Below are positions 1 through 42,870 of a DNA stretch of 64,000 nucleotides, piece after piece. The position numbers and the translations under genes are program-made. Location: the IMG/VR virus record IMGVR_UViG_3300027908_000003, positions 1 to 64,000 of that record; one strand, given 5' to 3'. The notes below the pieces were generated by a model that was given only the letters and a program-made list of their open reading frames with translations, did not search any database and had not been told where the DNA came from. This stretch comes from a virus. How positions within the stretch are numbered: position 1 is the stretch's first letter; every line of letters starts with the position of its first letter.

Positions 1-174
1 AACATGATAATAAATGAAACCTTTTCGCGCAAAATCCCCTGATAAGTATTCGCATATGAAAGCTGTTCAAGAGCTAATTCGGCGCGAGAGAACTTCTCAA
101 AAAAGAATTGAAAAACGTATTAGAGAATACTATAAGAAAGAAGCTAAATATGATAATGGAGACGGAGCATTCTA

Positions 175-411
175 ATGTCTATTGAAGAAGGAGGGGGATT
201 TCCGCCAAAAGAGTTTGATACTTTTAGCGCAATAACTTATATGGAGCAAGCTTATTATAATTTGGAGCATATTCTTAGTGTGACTAAATACAATAAGAAA
301 ATTCTCAAAGATATTAATAATCTAGATGAAGAAAAATTCTCAGAAGTTCTAGCAATTCTAACTCCAATTTATGATAAGTGGAGTAGAGAAAAGCGTAAGT
401 GGGGGAATTAA
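175..411 (+). CDS. hypothetical small protein, tandem paralog of the next ORF
   Basis: 78-aa ORF. Its stop overlaps the next start (TAATG). N-terminus IEEGGGFPPKEF resembles VEEGDGIPPRNF of the next ORF. Confidence 0.5.
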   Translation: MSIEEGGGFPPKEFDTFSAITYMEQAYYNLEHILSVTKYNKKILKDINNLDEEKFSEVLAILTPIYDKWSREKRKWGN

Positions 412-740
412 TGGCTGTTGAAGAAGGGGATGGAATTCCACCACGAAATTTTCCCTCGCTAATAAATTCAGTAATTAATGAGACAGTACCAGATATCCCT
501 TTGGTACTGCGTAAAGAGATAATTAAGCTGTGTGCTATGGCAGGATTTGATCGGGAAGAATCTCTCTTTGCGCCTAATTCCCCCGAGAGTTGGGAGAATG
601 CACACAATGGTAAAGATGAGGAAGACATTACTGTTTCTGCAGCAGAGTCGGCCATAAGAAAGTTCTGTGAACTAGAAGGAATTAAACAAGAGTTTAAAGG
701 AGAGACTTACCGCCTCGCTGGCCCTTGGAGAAAGCCGTGA
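411..740 (+). CDS. hypothetical protein, tandem paralog of the preceding ORF
   Basis: ORF track gives a GTG at 399. An ATG at 411 overlapping the upstream TAA is the more likely start. Shares the EEGxGxPP(K/R)xF N-terminus. Confidence 0.5.
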   Translation: MAVEEGDGIPPRNFPSLINSVINETVPDIPLVLRKEIIKLCAMAGFDREESLFAPNSPESWENAHNGKDEEDITVSAAESAIRKFCELEGIKQEFKGETYRLAGPWRKP

Positions 741-946
741 CTGTTCCACAGATGCCAAAATGTATTGGGGTACTAGGTTTCATTTTTGGACACAAGTTTT
801 CTGGTGGTGGATATGTTGGATGGAATAATTGTCTTCGTTGTGGAATCTCAAAGAATAATTGCACTCAGAAAGATGATAAGAGAATGAAGTGAGTAATAAA
901 ATGACTGATAGATATATAATTGATATTATTTAGATTTGAGCAAGAT

Positions 947-1099
947 ATGAAAACAATAATTAAGCTAGACGAATTCAAGAAATTTCAATATTGCCCTCAA
1001 TGTAGAACTAAGAGTTTGTTTTCTCAATATGAAAAAGTATGTAAGAAATGTCAGATAGAAATTAGAACAGAAGAATCCAATGGTGAACAAAATGGCTGA
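947..1099 (+). CDS. small Zn-ribbon-like protein (50 aa)
   Basis: Hand translation ATG947-TGA1099 gives MKTIIKLDEFKKFQYCPQCR...VCKKCQ, with two CxxC pairs. Below the ORF-track size cutoff. Confidence 0.35.
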   Translation: MKTIIKLDEFKKFQYCPQCRTKSLFSQYEKVCKKCQIEIRTEESNGEQNG

Positions 1100-1188
1100 T
1101 ATATATACTCCAGCAGGAAATCGCGCGGAAATGATAACTAAACCTGCAGGAATATAAATAAATCTTCCTCGAATAAGAAAGAAAAACT

Positions 1189-1467
1189 ATGACAAATTCC
1201 GAGCTAGACCCGGCGGGACGCGACGTGGAGTTGCTGCGGGCTGCGGTAGAGCACCGCATCGTTTGGAACGACCACCATGAGTGCTGGGACCTCTGGCCGC
1301 GACTCGCAGGCAGAATCGAGGTCAGCGAGATCGTGCCCCTTGAGGCCGACGCACTCGACCATCTAGTGCACGTCGGCGTGATCATCCTGCGGTCCGATCA
1401 CCGCATCTGGGTTTCGGATCACAGTAAGCGAACCCTCGCGCAGTGGGAGGAGATGACCTGTGCCTGA
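1189..1467 (+). CDS. island ORF A, hypothetical (92 aa)
   Basis: The ATG and first four codons lie in AT-rich flank and the rest in GC-rich DNA. N-terminus MTNSELDPAG is paralogous to the starts of ORFs B and C. Confidence 0.6.
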   Translation: MTNSELDPAGRDVELLRAAVEHRIVWNDHHECWDLWPRLAGRIEVSEIVPLEADALDHLVHVGVIILRSDHRIWVSDHSKRTLAQWEEMTCA

Positions 1468-1858
1468 GCTAGACCCGGTAGGGCTGCCGAACGAACGGCC
1501 AGTACAGGAGCGCGGCACGACCGAGGCCGCGATTGAAGCGCTCATCCTTCACGACTGGCAGAGCGAGTGGCGTGCGGGCGTTGAGCACTACGCGGTCGGG
1601 CAGCACTTCGCCATCGCCGTGACCACACACCCGGAGAGTCCCGAGCCGTGGGAGCCCGATGCGCTGCTGGCGTTCGTGCCTTCGAGCGGGCACGGGGTGA
1701 CGATCGTGCCGTGCCTTCGTGCTGAAAACATCTGGTGCCCCCTGGGTACCTGCTGGCGCATCTTGTGTGCTTTGAAGGGAGAGCGGCCACTGCCCTACCG
1801 CTTCACGCTAAGCGAAGCGATGGAGAGCGCCCTCAGAGAGGCGGTGCCTGATGTCTGA
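1460..1858 (+). CDS. island ORF B, hypothetical (132 aa, GTG start)
   Basis: GTGCCTGA overlap with the ORF A stop. Begins (V)PELDPVGL, encoded by the 22-nt junction repeat. Confidence 0.6.
   Translation: MPELDPVGLPNERPVQERGTTEAAIEALILHDWQSEWRAGVEHYAVGQHFAIAVTTHPESPEPWEPDALLAFVPSSGHGVTIVPCLRAENIWCPLGTCWRILCALKGERPLPYRFTLSEAMESALREAVPDV
1464..1485 (+). repeat. 22-nt junction repeat CTGAGCTAGACCCGGTAGGGCT, copy 1
   Basis: Identical to 1855-1876. Begins at the stop codon of ORF A and encodes ELDPVG of ORF B. A degenerate copy, GAGCTAGACCCGG, sits at 1201-1213. Confidence 0.9.
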
Positions 1859-3029
1859 GCTAGACCCGGTAGGGCTAGAGGCAGCGGCACTGGACGAGGC
1901 GGTGGAGAGCTACCGCCATATGTTCGCCCCTGGCGTGTCGCGAGAGTCGACGTTTCGTAATGGCTGGGCCGCTCGCGCCGCCTACCTCTCAGTACAGGGA
2001 CGGGACGGCTCGGAGCTTGATCGCCTCCGAGATGGAATGGCCGAGCGCGGATTCATCGTGGGTTGTAACCCCGACGGTGTGGACGATTTGGTCGAGGCGA
2101 CGCTGTTGGTGGTTAGCGAGCTCCTCTCAGTACAGGAGCAGCCGCCACCTCGACTGGATCGGATTTCCTTTGAGAGCGGCTATGTCACGGCGATGAGCGC
2201 CGTGTGGTCCGGGGTCTATCCGGCGAATGAGTCAGCACTTGCACTGTTCGTGAAGAAAGCGTGGAAGGGGACGGGGGCCGATGCGTCAGTACAGGAGCAG
2301 CCAGACGAGCGGGAGATTTGGCGAGTCCAGCAGATCATCGTCGGCGATCTGAGGCCCTCTCGTAAGAAGGATGCGAGAGAGATCGCGATGGCGATTCTCG
2401 CCGTGCGGCAGAAGGAGACGACGAATCCTGCGGGTGCCCCAAAGCTGACCGATACCAAGCCCGGCGTAGAACCCGTCACCGAGACACCGCAGGAGCAATG
2501 GGCGCGGGAATCGAACGAGCATCAGGCCCAAGTCGAGCAGCGGCAGGAGCCAGACGAGCGGATGCGGGTCACGCTTCTGCGGTGCGGCCAGTGCAACAAG
2601 GTGGCGTCGAAGGAGGCGTGGGACAAGGAGTGGTGGGCTGAGCGGTCACGTCGGATGAGCGACAAAGAGGCCATCGCCGAGCACGAATGGAGCACCGAGT
2701 CCACGAGCGACTATGGCCTAGATGAACGTGACGTGTGCCCTCACTGCAGCTATGTACACTCCGACAACGAGGAAAGCCACGTCGAGGAAGTGGACGGCTC
2801 CGCTCTCGCCGTGTGGGACACCGAGCAGCAGCCCAAAGAGCCAGACGGGCGGTTGAGAAGGCTGGCGGAAGCGATCCACCGCCTCAACGTGGATTGGACT
2901 CACCTACGCACTGCCTGCGGCGATCCCCAGTGTCTCGGAGACTGTGAGTACGTGCAAACGATCAACCTCATTCTCAATGATGTTCTCGGCATTGAGCGGT
3001 CGGCTGAGCAGAAGGAGCAGGGGCGATGA
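1851..3029 (+). CDS. island ORF C, hypothetical modular protein (392 aa) with CxxC pairs
   Basis: ATGTCTGA overlap with the ORF B stop. Begins MSELDPVGL. Carries repeated SVQEQP / EQRQEPDER / DTEQQPKEPDGR linker motifs and a CGQC...CPHC Zn-ribbon-like segment. Confidence 0.6.
   Translation: MSELDPVGLEAAALDEAVESYRHMFAPGVSRESTFRNGWAARAAYLSVQGRDGSELDRLRDGMAERGFIVGCNPDGVDDLVEATLLVVSELLSVQEQPPPRLDRISFESGYVTAMSAVWSGVYPANESALALFVKKAWKGTGADASVQEQPDEREIWRVQQIIVGDLRPSRKKDAREIAMAILAVRQKETTNPAGAPKLTDTKPGVEPVTETPQEQWARESNEHQAQVEQRQEPDERMRVTLLRCGQCNKVASKEAWDKEWWAERSRRMSDKEAIAEHEWSTESTSDYGLDERDVCPHCSYVHSDNEESHVEEVDGSALAVWDTEQQPKEPDGRLRRLAEAIHRLNVDWTHLRTACGDPQCLGDCEYVQTINLILNDVLGIERSAEQKEQGR
1855..1876 (+). 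repeat. 22-nt junction repeat, copy 2
   Basis: Identical 22-mer spanning the ORF B stop and the ORF C start. Confidence 0.9.
2127..2143 (+). repeat. 17-nt repeat TCAGTACAGGAGCAGCC, copy 1
   Basis: Exact copy at 2286-2302. Related CAGTACAGG cores at about 1500 and 1990. Always read in frame as (S)VQ(E/G). Confidence 0.9.
2286..2302 (+). repeat. 17-nt repeat TCAGTACAGGAGCAGCC, copy 2
   Basis: Exact 17-mer. Followed by CCAGACGAGCGG, which recurs at 2550-2561. Confidence 0.9.
2815..2830 (+). repeat. 16-nt repeat GGGACACCGAGCAGCA, copy 1
   Basis: Exact copy at 3174-3189. Encodes (W/R)DTEQQ in ORF C. Confidence 0.9.
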
Positions 3030-3889
3030 GCGCGCCAGAGCTTACGCAAGACGAGCAACGCGCGATGGAGTCCGCGTGGGCCGCTTCACCGATGCGCGGG
3101 GCGAGCAAAGTCGGCTGGCCCTGGGCGTGGCGCGCTGCGCGCGACTACTACACCGAGGACGCTCTCACTGTGCGGGACACCGAGCAGCAAGAGCAGCCGA
3201 AGCCTGAATGGACCTGGGCGCGTCTATATACGCGGCTGGATGCCGCGATCCTTGAGCACAAACGGGCCACCGCGCCGCTTAGGTCACGCGACACGGACCG
3301 CGCGCTTTGGGCTGCCTACGAGGCGATAGACCGTGATCTGTTTGGTGTGCCCAAGCGGCGGGAGCTCAGGGCACCCACAGCATGGACTGACGATTCAGCC
3401 GAGACGTTGGACGCTGCGGCCGAGCAGCAGGAGCAACCAACGGCGCGTCTAGGTGGACATTGGGTTTGGGTCGAGGATGAGCCTACGAGCACTTGGGCAT
3501 CATGCCAGCGGTGCTCGCCGACCAAGGCCTGTCCGCAGCACCAGGAGGAGGCGAAGGCGTATTGGGAGGGCTTTCGCATACGCGAGGCCGAGCAGGGGGC
3601 GCGACCCTCTCAGCGCGTCACGCACGGCCGTCACTGCATCTGCTCGGCGTGTGCCGCTCAGGACTGGGCCGAACCGGGCCTCGCGTCGTGTGGGATGCAC
3701 GGCCCTTCTTGCCCTGCGGTTTACGCACCGCTCGGTGCTGCTGGTGACACGGTGTCCGCGCCGTCGGGGGAGCAGGAGCCAGCGGAGGCGGACCCGGTGC
3801 GTGCGGCTCTGATCGAGCTTGTGCGGCTCAAGGACTGTAAGGACGGTCGCGAGTCCGTCGGCGGTAGCCCGAAGATAGAGCTAAATTAA
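3026..3889 (+). CDS. island ORF D, hypothetical Cys-rich protein (287 aa)
   Basis: ATGA overlap with ORF C. Contains DTEQQEQP and AAEQQEQP linkers. The last codons and the stop (GAG CTA AAT TAA) lie in the AT-rich flank. Confidence 0.6.
   Translation: MSAPELTQDEQRAMESAWAASPMRGASKVGWPWAWRAARDYYTEDALTVRDTEQQEQPKPEWTWARLYTRLDAAILEHKRATAPLRSRDTDRALWAAYEAIDRDLFGVPKRRELRAPTAWTDDSAETLDAAAEQQEQPTARLGGHWVWVEDEPTSTWASCQRCSPTKACPQHQEEAKAYWEGFRIREAEQGARPSQRVTHGRHCICSACAAQDWAEPGLASCGMHGPSCPAVYAPLGAAGDTVSAPSGEQEPAEADPVRAALIELVRLKDCKDGRESVGGSPKIELN
3174..3189 (+). repeat. 16-nt repeat GGGACACCGAGCAGCA, copy 2
   Basis: Exact 16-mer in ORF D. A related CCGAGCAGCAGGAGCAACC sits at about 3420. Confidence 0.9.
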
Positions 3890-3917
3890 AGCAAGAAAAT
3901 AGAAAACTTCAGGATAA

Positions 3918-4193
3918 ATGTCGCGCAAGGTAAATTCCCCAAGAATAATAGATATAAATGAATTTGAATCATTTATATTCAGAACAAATGGATGCTGGTG
4001 GTGGACTGGTAGTGTTGATAAAAGAAGTGGTAGAGCTATGTATCATAATAGAAATGCTGCTACTATTGCTTATGAGCTATATTATAATACTAAATTGGAG
4101 CATAGCATGATTATTAAACAAATATGCAATAATGTAAAGTGTGTTAGAAAAGATCATCTCCAACTCGCGCGCAAAACTTTCCCTGGAAGATAA
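3918..4193 (+). CDS. HNH homing-endonuclease-like protein
   Basis: NGCWWWTGS...AATIAYELYY...QICNNVKCVRKDHLQL follows the phage HNH pattern (GCWxWxG ... H.C.N..C.....HL). Starts 29 nt after the island. Confidence 0.7.
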   Translation: MSRKVNSPRIIDINEFESFIFRTNGCWWWTGSVDKRSGRAMYHNRNAATIAYELYYNTKLEHSMIIKQICNNVKCVRKDHLQLARKTFPGR

Positions 4194-4194
4194 A

Positions 4195-4512
4195 ATGTAT
4201 AGATATGTATATAATAGAGATACTGACCGACACTATTTAATGAGCGATAAGGAAATAAATATGACTACTTCACTTCCGGCGCTAATCTCGCCAAAGGATA
4301 TTGCCAATAACCCTACTGACCCTTATAGAATAATACCTTTTCTTGAGGAAGTTAGAAGAATATGGGATACTGAATCGGGAAAAACTTTTGCGCAAATTCT
4401 ACGCCTGATTTTGAATGATGAATTTGTTTTAGCAGAATGGAACAACAATACTATTTTTGAATTGTCTGATGATGAATTTCTTGCTGCTCTGCAGAACTGT
4501 AGAAATGTCTGA
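4195..4512 (+). CDS. hypothetical protein
   Basis: In frame with track ORF 4141-4512. The ATG at 4195 just after the HNH stop is the likelier start. Confidence 0.5.
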   Translation: MYRYVYNRDTDRHYLMSDKEINMTTSLPALISPKDIANNPTDPYRIIPFLEEVRRIWDTESGKTFAQILRLILNDEFVLAEWNNNTIFELSDDEFLAALQNCRNV

Positions 4513-4696
4513 ACCTATCAAGTATACTATAACTGTTTCAGACGCTTCAAAAATATTTACTGACTCTTATGTAGTTGCATCAGACTTATTTACTACGTCT
4601 TTTAAAGCCCATACATGCTATATATGTGGAGCAATGGTGCGAGAAACTGCAACTATTTTGCATCAGAAATGGCATGAAACTAGAGGAGAGATTTAG
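4505..4696 (+). CDS. hypothetical protein
   Basis: Internal ATG of track ORF 4457-4696, with an ATGTCTGA overlap on the upstream stop. Confidence 0.5.
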   Translation: MSEPIKYTITVSDASKIFTDSYVVASDLFTTSFKAHTCYICGAMVRETATILHQKWHETRGEI

Positions 4697-4862
4697 TGCA
4701 CAGACCGGATACAATCAAAGGTGTACTTGAATTCTGTTCTTCTGAGGGTCAGCCTACTAATACTCTTGAAGAATTTCTTAAAAAACTTTCTCAACAATAT
4801 AAGACTAACAATGAAATTGCTGATCTTATTATTAGTGAACTTGAATATGAAAGCCCTTATTA

Positions 4863-5060
4863 ATGACTAAGAATGAAGCAATAGAATTAGTAAATAGCTG
4901 GGCAGAAGAAGCGGAAAATGGTAATTATCATGATCTAGCCACAATACTTTATTACTTGTCAGATACTTGCTCTTTTTCTCCAGGCAGGTATGTGATCATT
5001 AAGTCTGTTGATGAGAACCCTATTGCTAATAATATTGTAGAATTGGAGATCAATGAGTAA
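4863..5060 (+). CDS. hypothetical protein
   Basis: 65-aa ORF overlapping the LysRS start by 8 nt. Confidence 0.5.
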   Translation: MTKNEAIELVNSWAEEAENGNYHDLATILYYLSDTCSFSPGRYVIIKSVDENPIANNIVELEINE

Positions 5061-6294
5061 GTCTATCTCACGTCAACAAAAGCTAGAAAAACTGATTAAT
5101 CCTTACCCGCGCAATTTCCCCGACCGAGTTTCAATTCAATCTGTTCTTCATGAATTTAAGGTAGCAAGAGATCTAAGCCTTCTTGATGGCAATATAAAGA
5201 ACCAATCATATAAAATAGCAGGTAGAATATCTGCCAGAAGAGATATGGGTAAGAACATTTTCTTTGATTTATTCGATCAGACTGGATCTATTCAATTGCA
5301 TGTTAAACTACTAGATTTTGTAGAGAAAGATGATCTTGATCTAGAGATTGACCTTGGAGACTGCTACGGCGTAGAAGGCATATTAACTTCAAATCTTCGC
5401 GGAGAGCCACTACTGCTAATTCATAATTGGACTCTCCTAGCAAAGGCCCTCCGTGAGCCACCGGATAAATTCCACGGAATTTCTAAGCCTGAATCACGGT
5501 ATCGTCATAGGGAGTTGGATCTACTCTCCTCGCCCGATTCTCGCGCTGTGTTTAAGGCTAGAGCAGAAATTGTATTTGAGATCAGAAAGTGGCTAAATGA
5601 ACGAGACTATATTGAGATTGAAACTCCAGTTCTCCAACCAATCTATGGTGGAGCAACTGCTAGACCGTTTGTCACGAAACATAATGCGCTTGGACAAGAT
5701 TTCTTCCTCTCCATATCAAGCGAGCTGTATCTCAAGCGCGCCCTGGTGGGAGGTTATGATAGGGTTTATTCAATAAGTAGATGCTTCAGAAACGAGGGAA
5801 TTTCTCCAGAACATAATCCAGAGTTTACAAATGTAGAGATATTTGCTACTTGCGAGAATTATTTCACAATAGCAACACTTACTGAAAATCTATTACATCA
5901 TCTGTGTAAGAGATTTGATGTACCAATGTTTGAGATTGATCGAATGATGAATCTAAAATCTTCTGATTGGCCTCTCAGCAGAAAATACGCACAAAATGAA
6001 AATCTTGCAGAATCATGGGAGATGTTTGTAGACGGTATGGAGATTGCTAGCGGAGCATCTGATTTGAATGACCCTCGTGAGCAATACGAGAGGTGGCATG
6101 AAAGTTATAGTGAGGACCCAGCAACTTGTAATCCGTATGATGAAAATTACATAGAAGCACTAGAACAAGGGGCTTTGCCTTGGGCCGGAGTAGGAATTGG
6201 AATAGACAGACTATGTATGCTTCTACTAAATAAGAAGAACATTCGTGATACTATCATGTTTCCCCTTCTTCGCGCAAAATCTGCTGGAGATTAA
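5053..6294 (+). CDS. lysS: lysyl-tRNA synthetase, class II (compact, 413 aa)
   Basis: N-terminal OB-like domain. PPDKFHG...RYRHRELDL, ETPVLQPIYGGATARPF, SELYLKR, motif 2 CFRNEGISPEHNPEFTNVE and motif 3 GVGIGIDRLCMLL all match bacterial LysS signatures. Confidence 0.85.
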   Translation: MSKSISRQQKLEKLINPYPRNFPDRVSIQSVLHEFKVARDLSLLDGNIKNQSYKIAGRISARRDMGKNIFFDLFDQTGSIQLHVKLLDFVEKDDLDLEIDLGDCYGVEGILTSNLRGEPLLLIHNWTLLAKALREPPDKFHGISKPESRYRHRELDLLSSPDSRAVFKARAEIVFEIRKWLNERDYIEIETPVLQPIYGGATARPFVTKHNALGQDFFLSISSELYLKRALVGGYDRVYSISRCFRNEGISPEHNPEFTNVEIFATCENYFTIATLTENLLHHLCKRFDVPMFEIDRMMNLKSSDWPLSRKYAQNENLAESWEMFVDGMEIASGASDLNDPREQYERWHESYSEDPATCNPYDENYIEALEQGALPWAGVGIGIDRLCMLLLNKKNIRDTIMFPLLRAKSAGD

Positions 6295-6473
6295 ATTATG
6301 AGCTGGATGAGAGTTGATAAGAAAGAGTATTACAATATTTGTGAAGAAAGATTTCAAGCCATAAAATTGTTAGAAGAGTGGTTTATTGGAACAAAGGAGA
6401 AACCACATCTTAATGAAAGAACTGCTATTTTCCTAAAATTACAGGAGAAACCGTCTGCCGATGACTAGGAACA

Positions 6474-7604: not shown

Positions 7605-7853
7605 ATGAATGTGCCAGATGATTTAACTAATCCAGATAAAAATGGTGTTTTGCATCCTCCAGATATGGTGATACATTGGGCTGGATATCCCACCGCTTGC
7701 TGCCATCTTTATAGATACTCAAATGGCGTAATGCCTAATGAAGTTGATAGAGATGATGATGTAGATTATCTGCATATTTGTGATCCAAATGATTTTATTC
7801 AAGATATTCAAGATTGGGTAAATACTACAAAATATATCGGAGAAAATAAATAA
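7605..7853 (+). CDS. hypothetical protein
   Basis: 82-aa ORF whose C-terminus DWVNTTKYIGENK is repeated in the 6482 mini-ORF. Confidence 0.5.
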   Translation: MNVPDDLTNPDKNGVLHPPDMVIHWAGYPTACCHLYRYSNGVMPNEVDRDDDVDYLHICDPNDFIQDIQDWVNTTKYIGENK

Positions 7854-7875
7854 TGGAAAATAATTTTCCTTGGCC
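7845..7875 (+). repeat. 31-nt exact repeat, copy 2
   Basis: Identical 31-mer at the junction of ORFs 7605 and 7853. Confidence 0.9.
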
Positions 7876-8119
7876 GTCTGATTTTGAAATAGATATAGCA
7901 CATTCTTCTGATAATTTAATCAATCATAGAAATTGGTCTTGCTATGACTTTAGTGTCTGTAAACATACTGTAATGAAAGTAGTTGATGTTGATCAATGGG
8001 AGTTACAAGTTTGTATTTCTTGCGGAGCTATGGTACACAAAATATGTAACCATATTATGATATGGAATGAGTCTGGCTCAATGTTAAGGTGCAGTAACTG
8101 TGGAATTGATGGTACTTAA
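7853..8119 (+). CDS. hypothetical Cys-rich protein
   Basis: 88 aa. The MENNFPWPS start is repeated at 6482. Contains CISCG...CSNCG. Confidence 0.5.
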   Translation: MENNFPWPSDFEIDIAHSSDNLINHRNWSCYDFSVCKHTVMKVVDVDQWELQVCISCGAMVHKICNHIMIWNESGSMLRCSNCGIDGT

Positions 8120-8270
8120 ATGTGCAATATTATAACAATTAATCTTCCAGATAAATGTACTGAAGGTGATTTAATGATGGCTCAAGGTGCTATAATTCAA
8201 GCTTCTACTAATTTTGTTGCATGGGAAGATTTATACGGAGAAGATTCCGGGAGGGAAAGATAATGCTATA

Positions 8271-8318
8271 TCTCCTCCAGGCCAAAATTCTCCTCGCAAT
8301 ATCTCACCAACTAGGAAC
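8271..8318 (+). repeat. about 47-nt repeat, copy 2
   Basis: tctcctccaggccaaaattctcctcgcaatatctcaccaactaggaac, lying just upstream of ATG 8325. Confidence 0.8.
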
Positions 8319-8324
8319 TATTAA

Positions 8325-8777
8325 ATGAGTAAAGATAAAAAATATGATCCATCTATGAACAAAACTTATGAGATTGAGATAAATTATTATAATGATCTAG
8401 AAGGTGCAAGAAAATGGTGCGCAGAATTACATTTAATAGAGAATCGTTATGGAGTTAATGATATTAATTTAAAGACACGTTTAAGTGTTCACACTGCTTC
8501 TAGTAAAGAAGAAGCATATAGACATGCAGTTATCGAAATGAACAATCATAGAAATAAAAAAAAAGAAGATACTGTGTTTGATAAGAAAAAATTTATTGTT
8601 CAAACTTTTTATCCGTTCGCTGAAGTCAATGCTTATGGTCCTGTAACTGGTATAGATAATGCTGAATTATTAAAAAATAAGTTAGAAGATCAAGCTAGAG
8701 TAAAGAGATTAGGACATGGATATAGTGCTCAGATAATTGAGCTTGAGTCTCCTGATATACCATCAATAACAGTATGA
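8325..8777 (+). CDS. hypothetical protein
   Basis: 150-aa ORF with an ATGA overlap on the next ORF. Confidence 0.55.
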   Translation: MSKDKKYDPSMNKTYEIEINYYNDLEGARKWCAELHLIENRYGVNDINLKTRLSVHTASSKEEAYRHAVIEMNNHRNKKKEDTVFDKKKFIVQTFYPFAEVNAYGPVTGIDNAELLKNKLEDQARVKRLGHGYSAQIIELESPDIPSITV

Positions 8778-8986
8778 ATAAAAAACTATTAAAAAGAACA
8801 GAAAAATTTGAGAAAGGTTATGCTGAAAGATGCGGCATTACTGTTGATGAGTTAAGAAATAAAAGAGAAAGAGTTGTTGTAAGATGTAGAATGGGAAAAG
8901 ATTGTGATTATGAAGGTTGTGAAGGATTTAATAGTATTAGTAGAAAATTTGCAGAACAAGATGAAATACCAATAATATTGCCCTAA
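8774..8986 (+). CDS. hypothetical protein
   Basis: 70-aa ORF. The N-terminal TEKFEKGYA segment shares DNA similarity with 7219-7243. Confidence 0.5.
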   Translation: MNKKLLKRTEKFEKGYAERCGITVDELRNKRERVVVRCRMGKDCDYEGCEGFNSISRKFAEQDEIPIILP

Positions 8987-9015: not shown

Positions 9016-9087
9016 GCCTCCGTAGCTGAGCGGAATTAGCACAGCCCTTCTAAGGCTGGGACGCGCGTTCGAGTCGCGCCGGGGGCA
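9016..9087 (+). tRNA. tRNA-Arg (anticodon UCU)
   Basis: Hand-folded cloverleaf. Acceptor GCCTCCG/CGGGGGC. D stem GCT/AGC with a GG loop. Anticodon stem CAGCC/GGCTG with loop CT-TCT-AA. T arm GCGCG-TTCGAGT-CGCGC. Discriminator A. 72 nt. Confidence 0.85.
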
Positions 9088-9229
9088 CTGAGGGCTCTCT
9101 CTATCTATCACCAAGGGACCAGAATCGCGCGAAATTCTCCCCGGTTCCTTGATATACTAACCAGCGCATATGCCGCGCCAGAATTGGCGCAATAGAAAAA
9201 GAAATACTTTCATGGAAGGTTTCAAATAA

Positions 9230-11324: not shown

Positions 11325-11968
11325 TGTCTCATGATTTTGAGAGAAAAGAGGGCGAAGAATTCGAGTATTACATAGAAAGAGTTGTTCATAACTTCTATGC
11401 TTCGCAAACTGAAATAAACAATAACTTAAAAGAAATAATTGAAAGGTTGGACAAGTTGACTACATTAGCAGAACAGCTCGGAGTAGAGGAGACAACTCTC
11501 GCCGAAGTAGTACCGAAGCTTGCAACTGAGATTACTACTCTTCAGACTAATCTAACTACTAGGGAATCTGAACTTACTTCCGCGCAGGCTACCCTCTCTG
11601 CAGATTCAGCGGAACTGGCCACGAATAAGGCAGAATTAGCTGCAATTCAGAAGGTGCAGGAATCCCTTGCCCCAGTAGTAGAAAAAGCTAAGGAATTAGT
11701 CCCTGCGTCTCCTGTGACACCACCGGCCGAATCCCCGCCGGTTGAAACCCCCGTCACCGAAGCTCCAGTAGAAACAGCACCCGTTACTGAACCTACGCCA
11801 GTAGGCGAAAGCCCCGTGGTCGAAACTTCCGTGACTACGCCACCTGTTGAAACGGTCCCTCCGGCAGAAGTCGCGCCGAGTGAAGCCCCTGTAGAAACCA
11901 CTCCCCCCGTTACATCCCCCGAAGCACTGCCTGTTGAAGGTCCCACACCGCCGACGCCTAGCGTTTGA
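11324..11968 (+). CDS. coiled-coil protein with a Pro/Thr/Val/Glu-rich C-terminal tail
   Basis: 214 aa. The N-terminal half is heptad-like. The C-terminus is PVETPVTEAPVETAPVTEP-type low complexity. Confidence 0.55.
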   Translation: MSHDFERKEGEEFEYYIERVVHNFYASQTEINNNLKEIIERLDKLTTLAEQLGVEETTLAEVVPKLATEITTLQTNLTTRESELTSAQATLSADSAELATNKAELAAIQKVQESLAPVVEKAKELVPASPVTPPAESPPVETPVTEAPVETAPVTEPTPVGESPVVETSVTTPPVETVPPAEVAPSEAPVETTPPVTSPEALPVEGPTPPTPSV

Positions 11969-14646: not shown

Positions 14647-15177
14647 TTAAGTGAATGAAGTAACTTCTCCCTGTGGAATAGTTTCTACACCAGGAGCTTC
14701 AGGCGAGGGTACTTCCCCACCAGCAGCAGCAGGGACTACTACAGGGACTTCTACCTGCGATGCTTCTACCAGTCCTTGCGGAGTCAGTGGAGCAGTCGAT
14801 TCTGGATTTGTTGGGGCTATTACAGGTTCGGTTGGGGAAACTGGTGCGGTGGGAATTTCTGTATTTTCTGGCGCGGTTTCTGCTGCCGGAGTTTCGAGCC
14901 CTTCCTGCGGCGGCAACGGGGCAGCGACAGGAGCGGAAGGAGGAACAGGTAAAGAAGTAATATATATATTAACTAAATCACCAGTTTCACCAGCAACAGG
15001 ATTAATATTCCCATTACAACTTAAACTTAAATATCCTCCTAAAGCTGTAACAATATGATCAATAGCTTTCTTTACTTCTCCTAATACAAATTCTTCTCTT
15101 TCATGAGCAGGTAAACCGTTAAGCTCAGATTCTAATTGTGATACTGTTCCCGCATTCGGTTTAAATTCAAACGACAC
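14647..15177 (-). CDS. hypothetical protein with a Pro/Thr-rich C-terminal tail
   Basis: 176 aa. The C-terminal half is PVPPSAPVAAPLPP...TAPVSPTEPVIAPTNPEST low complexity. Confidence 0.55.
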   Translation of the reverse strand: MSFEFKPNAGTVSQLESELNGLPAHEREEFVLGEVKKAIDHIVTALGGYLSLSCNGNINPVAGETGDLVNIYITSLPVPPSAPVAAPLPPQEGLETPAAETAPENTEIPTAPVSPTEPVIAPTNPESTAPLTPQGLVEASQVEVPVVVPAAAGGEVPSPEAPGVETIPQGEVTSFT

Positions 15178-17575: not shown

Positions 17576-20369
17576 ATTTTAATTTCTCACTTAATGCTAG
17601 TATAAATTTCTGTTCACTAATTGATGCTTCTGGTTTTATATAAAGAGTTTCTGTATTCACATCATATCCTGCTTGCATGTTTCCGGACAACTCCAAGCTC
17701 TCTGGGATATCGTCTGTTATCTCTACTGACAAATTAGAGGTTGTTAAGTAACTGAAATGTAAAGTGCAATTTGGATGTGAATTAGTTACCTCCTTCATAG
17801 CATCAGACAAGCTATAAACTTTAGCATTACGATTAATACAACGTTTGTCAGTATTAAGATTTGTACCATCAGAAGCATCATGCGCAATTACTTGATCTAT
17901 TCCCGCGTCAATTCCTGCCTGTAACATACCTTTATTATATGCATCTCTTGTCTGGGCGCGAACGGCGCGAGTGGAATAAGTCATAGGCATTTCAGCAAAA
18001 TGATCTTCTAATGCTTGTGCTACAACATCTGGATGTGAATTTTCCTGTAGCTGTTTTTCTAAGAAGTCTTTAAACACATCTTGAGTCGTATGATCCATCA
18101 AACTCAGATTTTCTTCTGCATACTTCTCTACCCAGTCTTTTAGAGTAGATGGATTAAATACACCGGGGTCAAGAGTTGCTAATTTCAATTCCCGCCGCCC
18201 TGCCGCCCCTGCAATCCTACTGAGAATTTCCTTGATGCTCAAGGACACTGCTGGCAGGGATTTGCTCTGATCGCTGAGCCATGCTGCCACAGCCCCCGCT
18301 GCAGCTATTTTCGCGTGCCCTGCGCCTAATCCCGGCTTGGATGGTTCTACCTGTTCAGGTTCAGCTAATTTCAACACAGTTTTATTACGAATTTGATTTG
18401 CAAAAGAAGTAAGCTGATTACGATACCGATCCATCAGCAGTTTTCTCATCTGTAAAGCTGCAGTCTTTACTGCTGCATCTTCATAAGGGGGGATTTTGGG
18501 CAAAGAAGAAAAGAAAGACTTAGCATCATAATGTCTACTTAAAGATTCAGCACCTAAATAAATCTCTCCTCCTGGCTGGAAATACACATGCTCTCCAGTC
18601 TCAGTTTTTTCTATCCCCGCATTTTCCCCTGCCATTCCTTCTTTCTTAGTAGGTGCCATAACAGGAGGTTTAGCATTTTCTTTTGCTTCTTCTTTTTTCT
18701 TCTCTTCCAGATGTTTCTGTTGAGCTTCAGTGGTGAGAGGAATCCCGTTTTGCCTAAGAAGTTCTCTCATATCTACTGGAATCTCCTCTGGATTTTTCTG
18801 CCCTAGAAGAGTTATAATTTGTTTGACAAGTTCTGAATTCTGGGAGCCATAAGCTCTAGTTGCTCGCTTGCAGGGTACATTTATTTTGTCAGGGAAATTA
18901 GCTGCAATAAATTCAGGTATCATATACTTATTAATATATTCATCATATTGATTAGAAAGAAGCTGTTGTGATTCCTGATAAATCTCACCCATCTGTGCTG
19001 CAACATATCTCTGACTAGATGTCTGTCCAGCCACAGTTGCGTCAACAAAAGCTTGTTCTGGGAGGAAACACGCTTGGATCATCATTATCTTTAATGTTGT
19101 AAAGCTCTGGTCTAATAGAGAAAAGTTCTCTCCACCCTCCATATATTTAGCATCCCACTTACGAGTATTGAGAGTTTTACCATCCTCACCAACCATAAAA
19201 TCACCAGGAAAAGCAACAGTAGTTCCTGACCTAATGCTATTTCCTATTTGAATAGCTTTCTGCTGAAGATTATAAACAGTTTCAGTTTCAGCATTATTTG
19301 CATCTAATGCCTCTGCTACCTCTGTAGGAAAATAAATAATTTTTGCAGGATCTGCCTTATTCTCAAAGCTTCTATCTGCAAGTGCCCACCGATACCAAAA
19401 GCTCCACCAAAATCTATATGCCCTTCTACTCCGAGGAGATCCATAAAGAGATCCATAATTGCGTGCTCTCTCATTAACTATCCACATACTCCACTCAAGA
19501 GGAATTGGATATCCACTAAGAACTTGTGGACCATATGTCTGAGCAACACCAAGCATCATAGGATTAGGAATAGGAACAGGTGAATACATAAAACCATTAA
19601 AGTTTCCTTGTTCATTCCATCTTGGCAAACAATTCTCTGGAGGCAGTGCGAGAAATGTCTTCCACATCAATGCATCTACATTATTAGATGGCCATATATC
19701 AAGATCTTTCTCTGGAGTTTCAGAAGACTTATCTCTATAAACTCCACCAAGTTTACCAAGTTTAAAACGTTTTACCATAGGCTGATAACCCATTTGTAAA
19801 CTCGTACAGAACTTCTCAATCAAATCTGAATTTATAGGTCGCAATGCTGAATCAACTGCAGCAGCTAATTGAGCATCTTCTGAATTCACGCTCCATGAAG
19901 CATTAATTAATGGAGTTTCTATATAGTAAAAAGCAAATGCAATAGTAGGATCAGCAGCCATATCACGCATAATGGAGAAAGGTAATCTTCTTACACTGAA
20001 TGGATTACCACCTAACTCTCTATGAAGAAGAACAAGATTTAGGATCTCGGCCTGAGTCTGCTGCCGAACAGAGGGACCAATCGCGCGAGCTTCCCTTAAT
20101 CTTTGAGCAACACCTTTATCAGTGTTTATTTCAAGTTCTCTCTCTTCTTCTGGACTTCCCTGTGGAAACTCATCAATTGAGAGGGGATTAAAGGTAAGCC
20201 TGTTACCTTCAGAACGTTTTTGAAATCCTTTTTCTGAATAAGTTTCAGCTTCTCCAGGCTTGGAATAACTTTCTTGTGTTTCTCTACGCGCCCGTTCTGA
20301 ATCAGGCGTCTGCATCTCTTTACCGCTAAGACGCTGTAATTCAGAACGTTCGTCTTTTTTATTAGGCAC
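17568..20369 (-). CDS. portal protein fused to a MuF/SPP1 gp7-like head morphogenesis domain (GTG start)
   Basis: 933 aa, positioned downstream of TerL. The C-terminus RAVRAQTRDAYNKG...CINRNAKVY...HPNCTLHF matches the Phage_Mu_F end motif (HPNCRC). The portal call for the N-terminal part rests on size and position. Confidence 0.6.
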   Translation of the reverse strand: MPNKKDERSELQRLSGKEMQTPDSERARRETQESYSKPGEAETYSEKGFQKRSEGNRLTFNPLSIDEFPQGSPEEERELEINTDKGVAQRLREARAIGPSVRQQTQAEILNLVLLHRELGGNPFSVRRLPFSIMRDMAADPTIAFAFYYIETPLINASWSVNSEDAQLAAAVDSALRPINSDLIEKFCTSLQMGYQPMVKRFKLGKLGGVYRDKSSETPEKDLDIWPSNNVDALMWKTFLALPPENCLPRWNEQGNFNGFMYSPVPIPNPMMLGVAQTYGPQVLSGYPIPLEWSMWIVNERARNYGSLYGSPRSRRAYRFWWSFWYRWALADRSFENKADPAKIIYFPTEVAEALDANNAETETVYNLQQKAIQIGNSIRSGTTVAFPGDFMVGEDGKTLNTRKWDAKYMEGGENFSLLDQSFTTLKIMMIQACFLPEQAFVDATVAGQTSSQRYVAAQMGEIYQESQQLLSNQYDEYINKYMIPEFIAANFPDKINVPCKRATRAYGSQNSELVKQIITLLGQKNPEEIPVDMRELLRQNGIPLTTEAQQKHLEEKKKEEAKENAKPPVMAPTKKEGMAGENAGIEKTETGEHVYFQPGGEIYLGAESLSRHYDAKSFFSSLPKIPPYEDAAVKTAALQMRKLLMDRYRNQLTSFANQIRNKTVLKLAEPEQVEPSKPGLGAGHAKIAAAGAVAAWLSDQSKSLPAVSLSIKEILSRIAGAAGRRELKLATLDPGVFNPSTLKDWVEKYAEENLSLMDHTTQDVFKDFLEKQLQENSHPDVVAQALEDHFAEMPMTYSTRAVRAQTRDAYNKGMLQAGIDAGIDQVIAHDASDGTNLNTDKRCINRNAKVYSLSDAMKEVTNSHPNCTLHFSYLTTSNLSVEITDDIPESLELSGNMQAGYDVNTETLYIKPEASISEQKFILALSEKLKYA

Positions 20370-25286: not shown

Positions 25287-27351
25287 ATTTACTCATCTGT
25301 CGAGAAAGTCGCTCACAATCAAGATGATAGTTATTTCTCAAAACTTTAAGATCAGTAACAACCTTTCTAGCCTCATGCTCTTTTTTACCTAATTCTAATA
25401 CTTCTATATCCCCACGAACTTGAGCCTCGCGATGCTCATTGGTGTTTCTCTTATTATCCTCGCCCATAAATGGAACTTCCTTAGCAACTACAGCTTCTCT
25501 ATAGGTTCTCATCTTTATATAATCATTCATTTCATCTTCATGCTGCATCAGAACCCAGTTCATTCTTGTCTCATATGCATGGAATCTGGCATGTAATGAA
25601 AACAGTTCATCTCTAGAACACAAAGAAACATCTATTGGGAATTGAGGAGCATTCTCATCACTATAATTAGGCGGCGTAGGAAAATTCTCTTTTTGAATAA
25701 TCTCCATCGCGCGATTTTGCGCCGAAAGTTTGTCATCGGTAACAGTAACTCCAGTTTGTGCTTCAAAGAACTTATCAAAATTACTCTGAGTAACAGGTTT
25801 AGAAACTACTTCAGGTGCTTGTACTGGCTGAGGTTTACTTACTGATTCTGCAGCTGCTTGTCCTATAGAACGATCTTTTTGTTCTTCCTCGCTAATTCTA
25901 ATTGGACCAGCTAAATTCTCCGGGGAAAATTCTTTATTATTCTCGGGCGAGATTTGCACCGGAACAGAAATCATAGCCTCAGTATTTATAGACTCAGGTA
26001 AGGCAATTTTAACTTTCTGTCCACTAGGAAGAGTTATTTCTGTAAGCGGTAGTTCCTCTTTTAATATTATCTCTTCTCTTTGATCATCAGAAAGAAAATG
26101 ATCAACTAATTCAGGACCCGGAACCTCTTTAGTAACAGCCATCTGAGACTCTTTCACAGCAGCAACAGACTCTGGATTATCCATTGCTTTAGCTCGCGCT
26201 AATTCCTCTGGAGAAACTTTTCCATCAGGATTGAGAACCATAAATCTAAGCTCATTATCTCCAATAGAGGGAATTTCTTTCCTACCTCGACCATAAGCTT
26301 TTAAGCAAGGTCCAGTTACTAAACTCTCAATCTTCTCTCTCTCGGCGGAAATATCGCCGGTAGTCTCCTCCTCAACATTCAATCCCAAATCAGCTTTAGT
26401 AACTACAGTCTCAGGAGCTTTTACCTCAGCAACAATTCCACCAATGCTTGTTCCACCTCTATCCGCCGAAATCGCCCCTGCTTCTACCTCACTCTCATTT
26501 ACTGGCATTTTGGTTGACTCTTCCTTTGGTCCATCTGGGTTTTCAACAATATATAGTAATTTCTCTGTAGGAACAGAATCTAATTTAGTGATATCTACTC
26601 CGTGCGCTTTTACCGCCGGAAGAGTCAACTGTGAAATTATTGCATCGCGTGTTCCATCTTCTTTAACCTTCGGGGCTTTAGATACTTTCCCTTCTGGCTG
26701 CGTCTCTGGAGTTTGTGCTCTGGCAAAAGCTCCGGCATCTTCATCTGTGTTTCCAGTTTGTCCTCCAGCTCCCCCATCTGGCGCAACTGCTCCGGTGTTG
26801 GGTCCTTCAGTCGCCTGAGCACGTTCGCCTGCTCCCTCATCTGCTGGCGTAGGACTCGCTGGCGTAATTTCTCCGGCTTTTTCCTCATCCGCGCTAGCTT
26901 CCGCTTGCGGTGTGATTTCTTGAATTTCTTGGGCCGGTTCATTGGATCGCCTTTCTTTCTCGGCTACATATGCCTTACGATCTTCTTCTACCTTCTCAGT
27001 TTGTGGGTAAGCATCTAAACCTGTAATTAATGCTTCTAGAATTCCATCAGTTAAAGTAGAAAGATCAAGACCATTGTGGATATGATCTACAATTTCTGTC
27101 TCAGCAGGAGCTTGTGCATGAGTAGCAACAGGGATTTCAGGAGCTAAATCAGTCTGAGCAATAAAGAGTATAGTATTAACATTGTCAGATTTATTACCGT
27201 TGTTAAAAGCAGCTTGAGCAGCAGCAACAATATCTGTTGCATCTTTCAATCTTTGTTTTTCATCAGTAGGTACAGCCGGCTCATAAATTCCGCGTGATAG
27301 ACTCTCGACAAGAATTGCTGTCGCTTGCTGGTCATTTAAAATTGCTGTCAT
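25255..27351 (-). CDS. large acidic protein with disordered and repeat segments
   Basis: 698 aa. Carries two related modules (LPAVKAHGVDITKL...IVENPDGPKEE and GPCLKAYGRGRKEI...MVLNPDGKVSPEE) and an acidic/Pro-rich middle. Function unknown. Confidence 0.55.
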   Translation of the reverse strand: MTAILNDQQATAILVESLSRGIYEPAVPTDEKQRLKDATDIVAAAQAAFNNGNKSDNVNTILFIAQTDLAPEIPVATHAQAPAETEIVDHIHNGLDLSTLTDGILEALITGLDAYPQTEKVEEDRKAYVAEKERRSNEPAQEIQEITPQAEASADEEKAGEITPASPTPADEGAGERAQATEGPNTGAVAPDGGAGGQTGNTDEDAGAFARAQTPETQPEGKVSKAPKVKEDGTRDAIISQLTLPAVKAHGVDITKLDSVPTEKLLYIVENPDGPKEESTKMPVNESEVEAGAISADRGGTSIGGIVAEVKAPETVVTKADLGLNVEEETTGDISAEREKIESLVTGPCLKAYGRGRKEIPSIGDNELRFMVLNPDGKVSPEELARAKAMDNPESVAAVKESQMAVTKEVPGPELVDHFLSDDQREEIILKEELPLTEITLPSGQKVKIALPESINTEAMISVPVQISPENNKEFSPENLAGPIRISEEEQKDRSIGQAAAESVSKPQPVQAPEVVSKPVTQSNFDKFFEAQTGVTVTDDKLSAQNRAMEIIQKENFPTPPNYSDENAPQFPIDVSLCSRDELFSLHARFHAYETRMNWVLMQHEDEMNDYIKMRTYREAVVAKEVPFMGEDNKRNTNEHREAQVRGDIEVLELGKKEHEARKVVTDLKVLRNNYHLDCERLSRQMSKYEMEKSDAPR

Positions 27352-42664: not shown

Positions 42665-42786
42665 CCGTTAACTTATAACTGGATAGAATCCAAACTCGTC
42701 TTGAGGGCTCCAGCATTCGCTACAAAGATTTTCGTAATACGAATTCTTTGCTAGGAATCTTCCGCAAGATGAGCATCTTTTCTTTT

Positions 42787-42870
42787 GCCCCAATGATGAA
42801 ATCGGTAAACATAGGGGACTTAAAATCCCCGGCTTGTAAAAGCTTGTAGGTTCGAGTCCTACTTGGGGCA
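42787..42870 (+). tRNA. tRNA-Leu (anticodon UAA), class II with a long variable arm
   Basis: Hand-folded. Acceptor GCCCCAA/TTGGGGC. D stem ATG/CAT with a GG loop. Anticodon stem GGGGA/TCCCC with loop CT-TAA-AA. Variable arm GGCTT-gtaa-AAGCT. T arm GTAGG-TTCGAGT-CCTAC. 84 nt. Confidence 0.85.

Follow-up and report, generated by a model that had tools for sequence, protein, structure and literature searches.

The stretch of DNA analysed here (the window: 64,000 nucleotides (nt), positions 1 to 64,000 of the IMG/VR virus record IMGVR_UViG_3300027908_000003) is a fragment of the genome of an AT-rich tailed phage from soil, with 38% G+C and a genome of ~93.6 kb. It encodes a terminase, a portal-like protein, a DnaE-type polymerase, DnaB, DnaG, a RecA-like protein, a class II lysyl-tRNA synthetase (LysRS) and a tape-measure-like protein of 2262 amino acids (aa). 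A megablast of window positions 1-6000 found no close relative among 50,697 GenBank phage records. An island of high-GC DNA in this phage carries four overlapping open reading frames (ORFs), and it is the origin and construction of this island that are considered below. The locus contains the following features; GC3 is the G+C content of third codon positions.

1201-3877, + strand: high-GC island, an imported block of a mosaic gene locus, delimited by G+C, GC3 and tetranucleotide signature
1189-1200, + strand: resident AT-rich start of ORF1 (ATG ACA AAT TCC), read from the sequence, with the purine-rich resident leader AAGAAAGAAAAACT upstream
1189-1467, + strand: ORF1, 92 aa, with an ELDPAG leader; searches matched only the protein itself
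1460-1858, + strand: ORF2, 132 aa, GTG start, leader MPELDPVGLPNERPVQER followed by a conserved module; homologues P0159 and P0160
1851-3029, + strand: ORF3, 392 aa, a mosaic of at least seven modules, every one of them common to another protein of another phage
3026-3889, + strand: ORF4, 287 aa, a mosaic by homologue search, with its final two codons and stop in AT-rich DNA
3605-3778, + strand: Cys/His domain of ~50 aa, (I/V)THGRHCxCxxC..DW..CGMHGxxCP..YxPxG, found in the ORF4 search
3878-3889, + strand: right junction, GAGCTA and then AT-rich AAT TAA, read from the sequence
3918-4193, + strand: resident AT-rich small HNH_3-like gene, matched by tblastn to the related phages L013 and L014 with E ~1e-15

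The G+C content is 0.644 for positions 1201-3877 vs. 0.382 in the remaining window, and the change is finished within ~10 nt at either edge when followed in 20-nt steps. A two-state hidden Markov model sets the island limits at 1199-3871. The sequence ATGACAAATTCC (4/12 G+C) stands directly before the switch on the left, and AATTAA comes after it on the right. The four ORFs show G+C contents of ~0.69, 0.4-0.57 and 0.73-0.77 at the first, second and third codon positions, like high-GC coding DNA, as compared with a GC3 of 0.23-0.36 in the flanking genes. Between the island and high-GC phage contigs, composition-normalised tetranucleotide signatures correlate with r of 0.55-0.76, vs. 0.09-0.10 between the island and the remaining window. 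An earlier inspection of the letters (hereafter, the sequence-only reading) had described a change from about one-third to about two-thirds G+C at both ends, with AT-rich ends of the first and last genes, and had proposed GC, codon-usage and tetranucleotide profiles as a check; the description holds in all these respects. The translational coupling that it ascribed to the four ORFs is likewise borne out by their overlaps, which are, in order, GTGCCTGA, ATGTCTGA and ATGA. The in-frame 3′ end of ORF4 weighs little, because every frame soon reaches a stop in AT-rich DNA. Apart from a weak hairpin on the - strand at 1199-1213, no promoter-like or terminator-like sites were found within the island or at its edges.

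An AT-rich inverted repeat of 15 nt, 87% complementary, lies around the island (1150-1164 / 3966-3980). Its arms are 25 nt away from the ATG of ORF1 on the left and 77 nt away from the stop of ORF4 on the right, and chance is the probable explanation. A transposon or insertion sequence (IS) was considered and rejected: the four ORFs include no transposase, GAGCTA is part of the leader of the element itself, and the flanking inverted repeat is, as said, probably fortuitous. No transposase, integrase or reverse transcriptase is encoded nearby, and an integron-like cassette and a diversity-generating retroelement were rejected together with the transposon.

Reads of a high-GC phage might have been misjoined into the contig of the AT-rich phage during assembly. 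A high-GC phage with related genes (L001) is present in the same study, and the copies of the contig are all identical, hence perhaps not independent. Against such a chimera, the exact ORF1 and ORF4 proteins were found on five contigs (the longest in the protein table being 106 kb, with JGI among the sources), and ENA ERZ28653432 (93,565 bp), ENA ERZ27314126 (93,651 bp) and a Logan contig from two samples are 100% identical to the window over both junctions. The same junctions were thus obtained by three assemblers or sources and in two Logan samples; no population variants of the window phage and no indels were seen between the assemblies, all of which are 100% identical. A chimeric de Bruijn graph join is unlikely because the sequence shared at the joints is ≤6 nt, which is too short, and the ORFs are kept intact over both junctions. 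Furthermore, independent datasets contain a GC-rich gene of the same family embedded in AT-rich DNA on both sides (L014, L079, L119), or at a contig end (L017). As the assemblies may share reads, this comparison with relatives is the stronger argument against an artefact. An assembly chimera is extremely improbable, and we are highly confident that the island is authentic and foreign.

The island genes consist of modules that alternate with short coding motifs, which recur at gene starts (leaders) and within genes (linkers). The copies in the island and the mini-modules next to them are as follows; pLDDT is the predicted local distance difference test score of AlphaFold2.

1201-1219, + strand: leader copy 1, GAGCTAGACCCGGCGGGAC, an exact 13-nt repeat, 95% identical to L016 5414-5432
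1461-1485, + strand: leader copy 2, TGCCTGAGCTAGACCCGGTAGGGCT, across the ORF1 stop and ORF2 start, 25/25 identical to L001 9724-9748
1850-1888, + strand: leader copy 3, across the ORF2 stop and ORF3 start, 26/26 identical to L001 10013-10038
2123-2147, + strand: in-frame linker LSVQEQPP (TCA GTA CAG GAG CAG CC), 25/25 identical to L001, flanks unrelated
2285-2316, + strand: in-frame linker SVQEQPDERE, 30/30 identical to L016 and 29/29 to L001, flanks unrelated
2408-2476, + strand: ORF3 mini-module TTNPAGAPKLTDTKPGVEPV, a 23-aa piece, 97.1% nt identity to L001 10777-10845, with an internally deleted linker before it
2481-2561, + strand: ORF3 mini-module TPQEQWARESNEHQAQVEQ, a 20-aa piece, with linker RQEPDER, 96.7% nt identity to L016 6773-6833, the linker 96% to L001
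2562-2806, + strand: ORF3 zinc-ribbon-like module (CGQC...CPHC), aa identity 72% to P0002 and 62% to P0004, nt identity 82.6% to L015
2807-2852, + strand: linker AVWDTEQQPKEPDGR, 24/24 identical to L001 11024-11047, a low-pLDDT segment
3170-3198, + strand: linker VRDTEQQEQP, 20/20 identical to L001 and L016, 18/18 to L005 and 16/16 to the L014 island gene
3370-3438, + strand: ORF4 mini-module APTAWTDDSAETLDAA with linker AEQQEQP, 95.3% nt identity to L001 10852-10915
3756-3790, + strand: linker PSGEQEPAEA, 23/23 identical to L001 and 94% over 32 nt to L016

The leader M-x-ELDP(V/A)GL is encoded by GAGCTAGACCCGGTAGGGCT and forms a nucleotide-identical start of consecutive genes. Its core GAGCTAGACCCGG is exact at the starts of ORF1, ORF2 and ORF3, and the leader read from GAGCTAGACCCGG(Y)AGG is found in ORF1-3 and twice each in L001 and L016. 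In its extended form of 25-28 nt, it is 96-100% identical to gene starts of L001 and 91-93% identical to those of L016. There, the same leader is fused to unrelated proteins, one of which, in L016, looks acetyltransferase-like by eye. The sequence TGAGCTAG has stop codons in two frames and encodes E-L-D-P in the third, so that it serves also as a coupling junction.

At module boundaries in ORF3 and ORF4, SVQEQP is encoded by TCA GTA CAG GAG CAG CC, VRDTEQQ by GTG CGG GAC ACC GAG CAG CA, PSGEQE by CCG TCG GGG GAG CAG GAG, and EPDER by GAG CCA GAC GAG CGG. The linkers SVQEQP, RDTEQQ, PSGEQE and EPDER, with fixed codons, separate modules that are common to different proteins. The linker codons, minority codons GTA, CTA and TCA included, are fixed over ~40 instances in six loci; where linkers vary, the changes are chiefly amino-acid-changing or lie in the last proline codon. 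Leaders and linkers are always in frame, and the linkers are 16-30 nt long. The motifs flank cassettes (the leader three times, linkers about ten times), and most similarity blocks begin or end at them. For seven linkers or leaders, the window matches L001 or L016 at 100% over 20-30 nt amid unrelated neighbouring sequence, the identity of the shared modules being 81-97%. Two joints that seem to be linker-free prove to be linker remnants with internal deletions, AVR[DTEQ]QKE and [D]TE[QQE]TPQ. Other sub-lineages of the family have exact repeats of their own, namely CGCCCCGTAGTAGAGGCGA twice in L077 and CGATGCCTAGCGAGCACG at two gene starts in L079. A search of IMG/VR with exact linker 16-18-mers returned the known loci and single matches in unrelated contigs at a chance-like rate.

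The window also contains two adjacent small AT-rich genes on the + strand, at 175-411 and 399-740, which have a common N-terminal leader, M(S/A)(I/V)EEG.G(F/I)PP(K/R)(E/N)F, and then diverge. The pair is a resident AT-rich parallel to the shared leader of the island genes.

Relatives of the modules occur in a pool of high-GC phages. Homologues of ORF2 without the leader, P0159 (68%) and P0160 (55%), lie in the high-GC phage contigs L080 and L081; in ORF3, residues 96-150 match P0003 (67%) and residues 150-185 match P0005 (64%). The high-GC contexts examined were L001, L005, L015, L016, L075-L077, L080, L081 and L118, and all family matches outside AT-rich phages are to uniformly high-GC (0.56-0.67) phage-like contigs. 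The family is an undescribed mosaic one, otherwise seen in uncultivated soil phages with this uniformly high G+C. Horizontal acquisition is indicated by mini-modules with 95-97% and linkers with 100% nt identity to L001 and L016, and by a GC3 and tetranucleotide signature unlike that of the recipient and like that of the donor pool. In the island, as in donor-type loci, the leader genes precede the long mosaic genes. The sequence-only reading had envisaged a precise insertion or capture from a high-GC donor: the capture is supported by the 95-97% identity of the modules and the donor-like signature; the one-off precise insertion is not.

In the 67-kb high-GC contig IMGVR_UViG_3300038457_000086 (L005), the ORF3-type module IWRVQQ..DLRPSRKKDAREIAMAIL occurs in two genes (L106 2868-3014 and L108 6413-6571). 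Modules are therefore duplicated within genomes besides being exchanged between them. The same contig has a separate gene for the Cys domain (L074 5001-5129).

A LysRS-based search retrieved three relatives of the window phage, L013 and L014 from IMG/VR and L017 from ENA, with LysRS aa identity of 56-62%. They share a conserved order: an FtsK-like gene, small ORFs, the variable locus (X), a small HNH_3-like gene, small ORFs and LysRS. In L014, X (7818-8525) is one gene of 235 aa with 63% G+C and a GC3 of 0.69, in which AT-rich codons make up the beginning (four) and the end (about six); the product contains a zinc ribbon and the linker VVRDTEREHEP, and the start context AAGAAAGAAA of the gene is similar to that in the window, with a 12-nt AT-rich beginning. 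The L017 contig opens inside a GC-rich gene (1-97) that has an EDTER linker and whose end falls at the HNH_3-like gene start. In L013, X (8646-8963) is a 105-aa gene of 42% G+C with the start ATGACCGATTTTTCC (cf. ATGACAAATTCC in the window). Full-size family genes at the same site in relatives mark this place as a conserved hot spot in which replacement has recurred.

These relatives also bear on the idea that the island genes are ancient residents, held GC-rich by selection, with linkers kept as functional peptides such as protease sites or a targeting leader. The family does sit at a fixed locus in deeply diverged phages, the leaders and linkers are always in frame, and T4 offers a precedent for a common N-terminal targeting leader. 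However, the GC3 of 0.73-0.77 and the donor-like tetranucleotide signature go beyond what amino-acid content would give, and the linkers keep rare synonymous codons unchanged. Moreover, the nt identity to high-GC phages reaches 95-100%, whereas the resident flanking genes of the relatives are far more diverged, and the module content differs wholly between relatives. Ancient residence is thus very unlikely.

A second AT-rich lineage (L079, L119), unrelated to the window phage by protein comparison, carries islands of the same type. The L079 contig is 95.8 kb long; its island, 2.5 kb with 65% G+C, has flanks of 32-42% G+C and lies between a LuxR-like gene and a gene for an Rpf-like transglycosylase. 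L119, which is 73% identical to L079, has at the same site a 0.6-kb island, a single GC-rich family gene of 200 aa with an AT-rich tail, and the start ATGCCTGA overlaps the resident stop. The flanks of the two phages are ~72% identical at the nt level vs. 94.6% for a patch inside the islands; the island content was therefore exchanged after they diverged.

A transglycosylase-like domain of the Rpf type (PF06737, E 3.6e-8) is encoded beside the GC-rich island on the - strand at L079 10414-10716 and L119 ~6031-6471, which hints at an actinobacterial host. L014 and L119, members of two unrelated AT-rich lineages, were found in one sample (IMG/VR 3300043787), and the window contig and L001, a high-GC phage with near-identical modules, come from one study, WILH17-1. 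Both co-occurrences are consistent with a shared community or host.

The junctions allow the mode of entry to be weighed. On the model drawn from the sequence-only reading, the island would have been inserted once and precisely, through GAGCTA microhomology, into a tiny ORF, ATGACAAATTCCGAGCTAAATTAA, so that removal of the insert would leave a 7-codon relic; integration of a circular cassette is a variant of the same idea. GAGCTA is indeed present at both edges (1201 and 3878), with n = 25 in 64 kb and a chance of ~0.5% for a copy at a distance of a few nt from the right edge, and recombination between leader repeats could excise a GAGCTA-bearing circle, like the PeSL mini-circles in T4-like phages. 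The left copy, though, is not a duplicated target; it makes up the initial 6 nt of the family leader, a motif of 13-25 nt with exact copies at 1201, 1466 and 1857, where ORF1, ORF2 and ORF3 begin, and this part of the description has to be corrected. The right copy lacks the start codon plus one codon found before every true leader, and the junctions of L014, L079 and L119 have no common repeat. The 24-mer that would mark the empty site is absent from IMG/VR, and relatives hold full-length family genes, no mini-ORF, at the site, which speaks against the relic. A single precise insertion is accordingly quite unlikely; the right GAGCTA may reflect microhomology or chance, and GAGCTA microhomology or leader-to-leader integration of a mini-circle is possible at the outer joints.

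The neighbouring gene suggests another route, namely homing-type mobility, in which an HNH_3-like endonuclease cuts co-infecting genomes and break repair turns the locus into a conversion hot spot. Such a gene lies directly 3′ of the variable locus in all four related phages (besides the window, L013 8977-9261, L014 8633-8920 and L017 96-371), and L080 likewise has an HNH gene after its ORF2 homologue. With Pfam PF13392, the score of the L013 orthologue is 36.1 bits, above the gathering cut-off of 24.8, and the orthologues of L017 and L014 give E values of 6e-4 and 0.026. The window copy, however, has no Pfam match at any score, and its first catalytic His appears by eye to be replaced; the hot spot of L079/L119 has no HNH gene, and most donor loci lack one. 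Homing as the driving process is unlikely. As a separate observation, the motif CGCGCAA(N3-7)T(T)CCC occurs near gene starts or ends in the window (22-48, 3919-3949, 4168-4200; FRAKSP, SRKVNSP, ARKTFPG), and L013, L014 and L017 have a similar one at the end of the HNH_3-like gene; it may be a peptide motif or a DNA signal.

Considering all these data, we regard the island as probably the current filling of a hypervariable locus that is conserved in the lineage and is refilled from co-infecting high-GC phages. The locus would occupy a fixed place in the + strand block of small genes, immediately upstream of the HNH_3-like gene, and its filling would be a contiguous mosaic block of two or three leader genes followed by long beads-on-a-string genes. 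The present filling would have been imported recently, with no amelioration since, via recombination during mixed infection of a shared, probably high-GC host. At the 5′ joint, the resident ribosome-binding context and ATG appear to be kept, the four ORFs being read by translational coupling; the block would therefore be expressed with the resident transcription unit. The retention of the resident start in both the window and L014 suggests selection for expression from resident signals. The 3′ joint would need no precision. The HNH_3-like neighbour may add double-strand breaks that heat the site, although the window copy is degenerate and the second lineage lacks such a gene.

Within the block, leaders and linkers would provide short-homology joints, at which phage recombinases could shuffle, insert and delete modules of 20-130 aa, and through which modules could move between otherwise unrelated genomes. 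Exact homology of 16-30 nt may be enough for recombinases of the single-strand-annealing or RecA type; recombination genes are present, a RecA-like one in the window phage and those for Erf and PD-(D/E)XK nucleases in donor-type phages. We consider the chances even that the leaders and linkers act as recombination joints. A wider proposal is that coding leaders and linkers of 16-30 nt make up a portable grammar of joints, and that AT-rich phages keep a landing locus which is refilled from the high-GC pool; it is conceivable, and we lean slightly against it.

Several points weigh against the preferred interpretation, refilling of a conserved locus through such joints. A single donor with long contiguous identity was not found among the contigs searched. 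The comparison of linker with module identity is skewed by the choice of best matches, and linker conservation could partly reflect a function at the peptide level. Not all module boundaries have a linker, as the L001 joint 10845/10846 demonstrates. Between the N-termini of the L013 X product and ORF4, the similarity is weak (pairwise E 6e-5; E 9e-4 against a small database), and beyond this weak match no ameliorated family members were seen elsewhere in AT-rich phages. The authenticity of the island is judged from assembled contigs, and the assemblies of the exact phage, being all 100% identical, possibly come from overlapping read sets. The AlphaFold2 models are poor (pLDDT 52 for ORF3 and 62 for ORF4, with a predicted template modelling score of 0.3). 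Finally, an attempt to name the host via the IS1595 transposase of L013 gave best genomic copies that are just 50-65% identical (Bryobacterales, Dormibacterota and Anaerolineales metagenome-assembled genomes).

Searches of ORF1-4 against Pfam, PHROGs, NCBIfam, PADLOC and PDB gave no significant profile match, an Rfam search of the island returned nothing, and tblastn of ORF3 and ORF4 found no match in the 50,697 GenBank phage records. Relatives of the island ORFs turn up in metagenomic protein collections. The earlier statement that the ORFs could not be assigned to any family is therefore right for curated libraries; in a wider sense, they belong to a large undescribed mosaic family. One variant, P0001, 97% identical to ORF3 with G-biased differences and a frameshift, was set aside; it looks like a noisy copy, and no contig is on record for it.

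The ORF4 search retrieved 173 cluster representatives at E<1e-10, nearly all of them aligned over the Cys/His domain; 147 of the 157 retrieved proteins carry the motif, and the domain has 18 invariant columns. The domain is missing from Pfam, NCBIfam, PDB and INPHARED. A pattern scan yielded no confirmed match in 185,579 GTDB species genomes and only three loci in IMG/VR. The analysis thereby flags a widespread uncharacterised zinc-type domain of ~50 aa (THGRHCxCxxC...CGMHGxxCP), with at least 173 protein clusters and 0/185,579 reference genomes. In the poor AlphaFold2 models, the pLDDT minima coincide with linkers, and the zinc-ribbon-like module at 2562-2806 has the highest pLDDT within ORF3; the dips at linkers in these models are consistent with beads-on-a-string proteins. 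Because the modules are small, acidic, partly zinc-binding and combinatorially shuffled, and lie in a block of small genes, one may speculate that the products are early host-takeover or counter-defence proteins made of small independent modules, some of them zinc-binding. Our confidence in statements on protein function is low.

A shared high-GC host is probable, as suggested by the IS elements in L013 and L014, the tRNA and LysRS set of the window and the Rpf-type transglycosylase in L079. The IS elements lie within the AT-rich relatives and have a G+C content of 0.57-0.63 (L013 1-1267, L014 14028-15131 and 16381-16971); they comprise an IS1595-family transposase, an IS5/IS1182-like transposase and an IS1595-like fragment. 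The window has only two tRNAs, Arg(TCT) at 9016-9088 and Leu(TAA) at 42786-42871, both on the + strand. They read AGA and UUA, the commonest Arg (50%) and Leu (34%) codons of the phage, of which the island use is 5% and 0%. The class II LysRS is encoded at 5053-6294 (+ strand), and AAA makes up 65% of phage Lys codons. The tRNAs and LysRS look like compensation for host translation poor in AT decoders, which fits a high-GC host.

Shorter GC-rich patches in other window genes had been taken by the sequence-only reading as a sign of repeated exchange with a high-GC gene pool. This fits about four of the ten patches; five others are driven by amino-acid content and one is a tRNA. The five are P/A/T/G/E-rich low-complexity coding sequences with GC3 of 0.33-0.48. 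The four exchange candidates, of 125-190 nt, are not of low complexity, lie in genes for the portal-like protein, a 269-aa protein, a methyltransferase and a 356-aa protein, and may be gene-conversion tracts from high-GC homologues. The patches are located as follows.

11580-11968, 14690-14943, 26689-26910 and 57976-58186: composition-driven patches, Pro/Thr/Ala/Glu-rich linkers and a Gly/Ala-rich tape-measure-like stretch, GC3 0.33-0.44
18191-18336, 35907-36032, 40810-40996 and 48283-48463: high-GC3 patches in genes of the - strand, GC3 0.59-0.74 vs. 0.24-0.30 in the rest of the gene

Among known systems, the internal-protein (IP) locus of T4 consists of consecutive, fast-exchanged early genes with a common N-terminal capsid-targeting leader of ~10 residues, and varies among close relatives. 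Consecutive island genes also have a common N-terminal leader, and the locus differs between relatives; in contrast, the island proteins have no sequence similarity to the IP products and give no evidence of capsid targeting or prohead-protease cleavage. The polyvalent proteins of phages and conjugative elements, according to what Iyer et al. reportedly described in 2017, are early-acting fusions of shuffled small modules, a logic attributed to counter-defence. The mosaic proteins of the island likewise comprise many small shuffled modules; polyvalent proteins, however, are built from recognisable enzymatic and anti-restriction domains, none of which was detected in the island ORFs. We know of no description of linkers conserved at the DNA level in polyvalent proteins.

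Morons of lambdoid and other tailed phages are said to be composition-distinct blocks between genes that are neighbours in relatives (Juhala et al. in 2000), and a moron has its own promoter and terminator. The island is also of foreign nucleotide composition, but it uses a resident start codon, is translationally coupled and replaces family members at a fixed locus. It has no autonomous signals, and relatives hold other family genes rather than an empty junction; the island is not a moron because it lacks such signals and represents replacement rather than insertion. Gene-boundary sequences that target recombination between unrelated modules were reportedly proposed by Susskind and Botstein in 1978 and, for HK620, by Clark et al. 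in 2001. To our knowledge, lambdoid phages have few such sequences, and weak ones, and none turned up in mycobacteriophages. Here too, short conserved sequences stand at module joints, yet these joints are numerous, exact, intragenic and in frame. The boundary or linker sequences of modular theory are discussed in PMC3029335 and PMC3233612.

The closest parallel is PeSL shuffling in the hyperplastic regions of T4-like phages, which are early and hypervariable; recombination at a motif there swaps, inserts and deletes non-essential ORFan cassettes between phages (Arbiol et al. 2010, PMC2839356; Comeau et al. 2014, PMC4122927). The PeSL is an intergenic cassette of a sigma-70-like early promoter and a stem-loop terminator, and nearby direct copies can yield mini-circles, which are possibly horizontal gene carriers (PMC2839356, PMC4122927). 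In both systems, short conserved motifs bound ORFan cassettes and similarity mostly breaks off at the motif. The motifs described here, unlike PeSLs, are coding, in frame, GC-rich and 16-30 nt long, are found at gene starts and within genes, and have neither sigma-70-like hexamers nor terminators; moreover, they join sub-gene modules besides genes and link phages of very different base composition.

Phage mosaicism is commonly ascribed to rare illegitimate recombination followed by selection, and conserved boundary sequences have seldom been recognised beyond the intergenic PeSLs of T4-like phages; in the present case, the joints can be seen, are numerous and lie inside coding sequence. The GC contrast serves as a natural label for imported DNA and crossover positions, and two unrelated AT-rich lineages each keep a fixed locus. 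The minimal homology used by phage recombinases, the domain shuffling of early, possibly counter-defence, proteins and the gene flow between host-sharing phages should all be testable through this system. The known kind to which the island belongs is phage mosaicism via short conserved joints, and what is new is that the joints are coding, in frame and intragenic. If our interpretation is true, they would be a coding-sequence counterpart of the PeSLs of T4, combining combinatorial shuffling with whole-locus exchange between unrelated phages that share a host.

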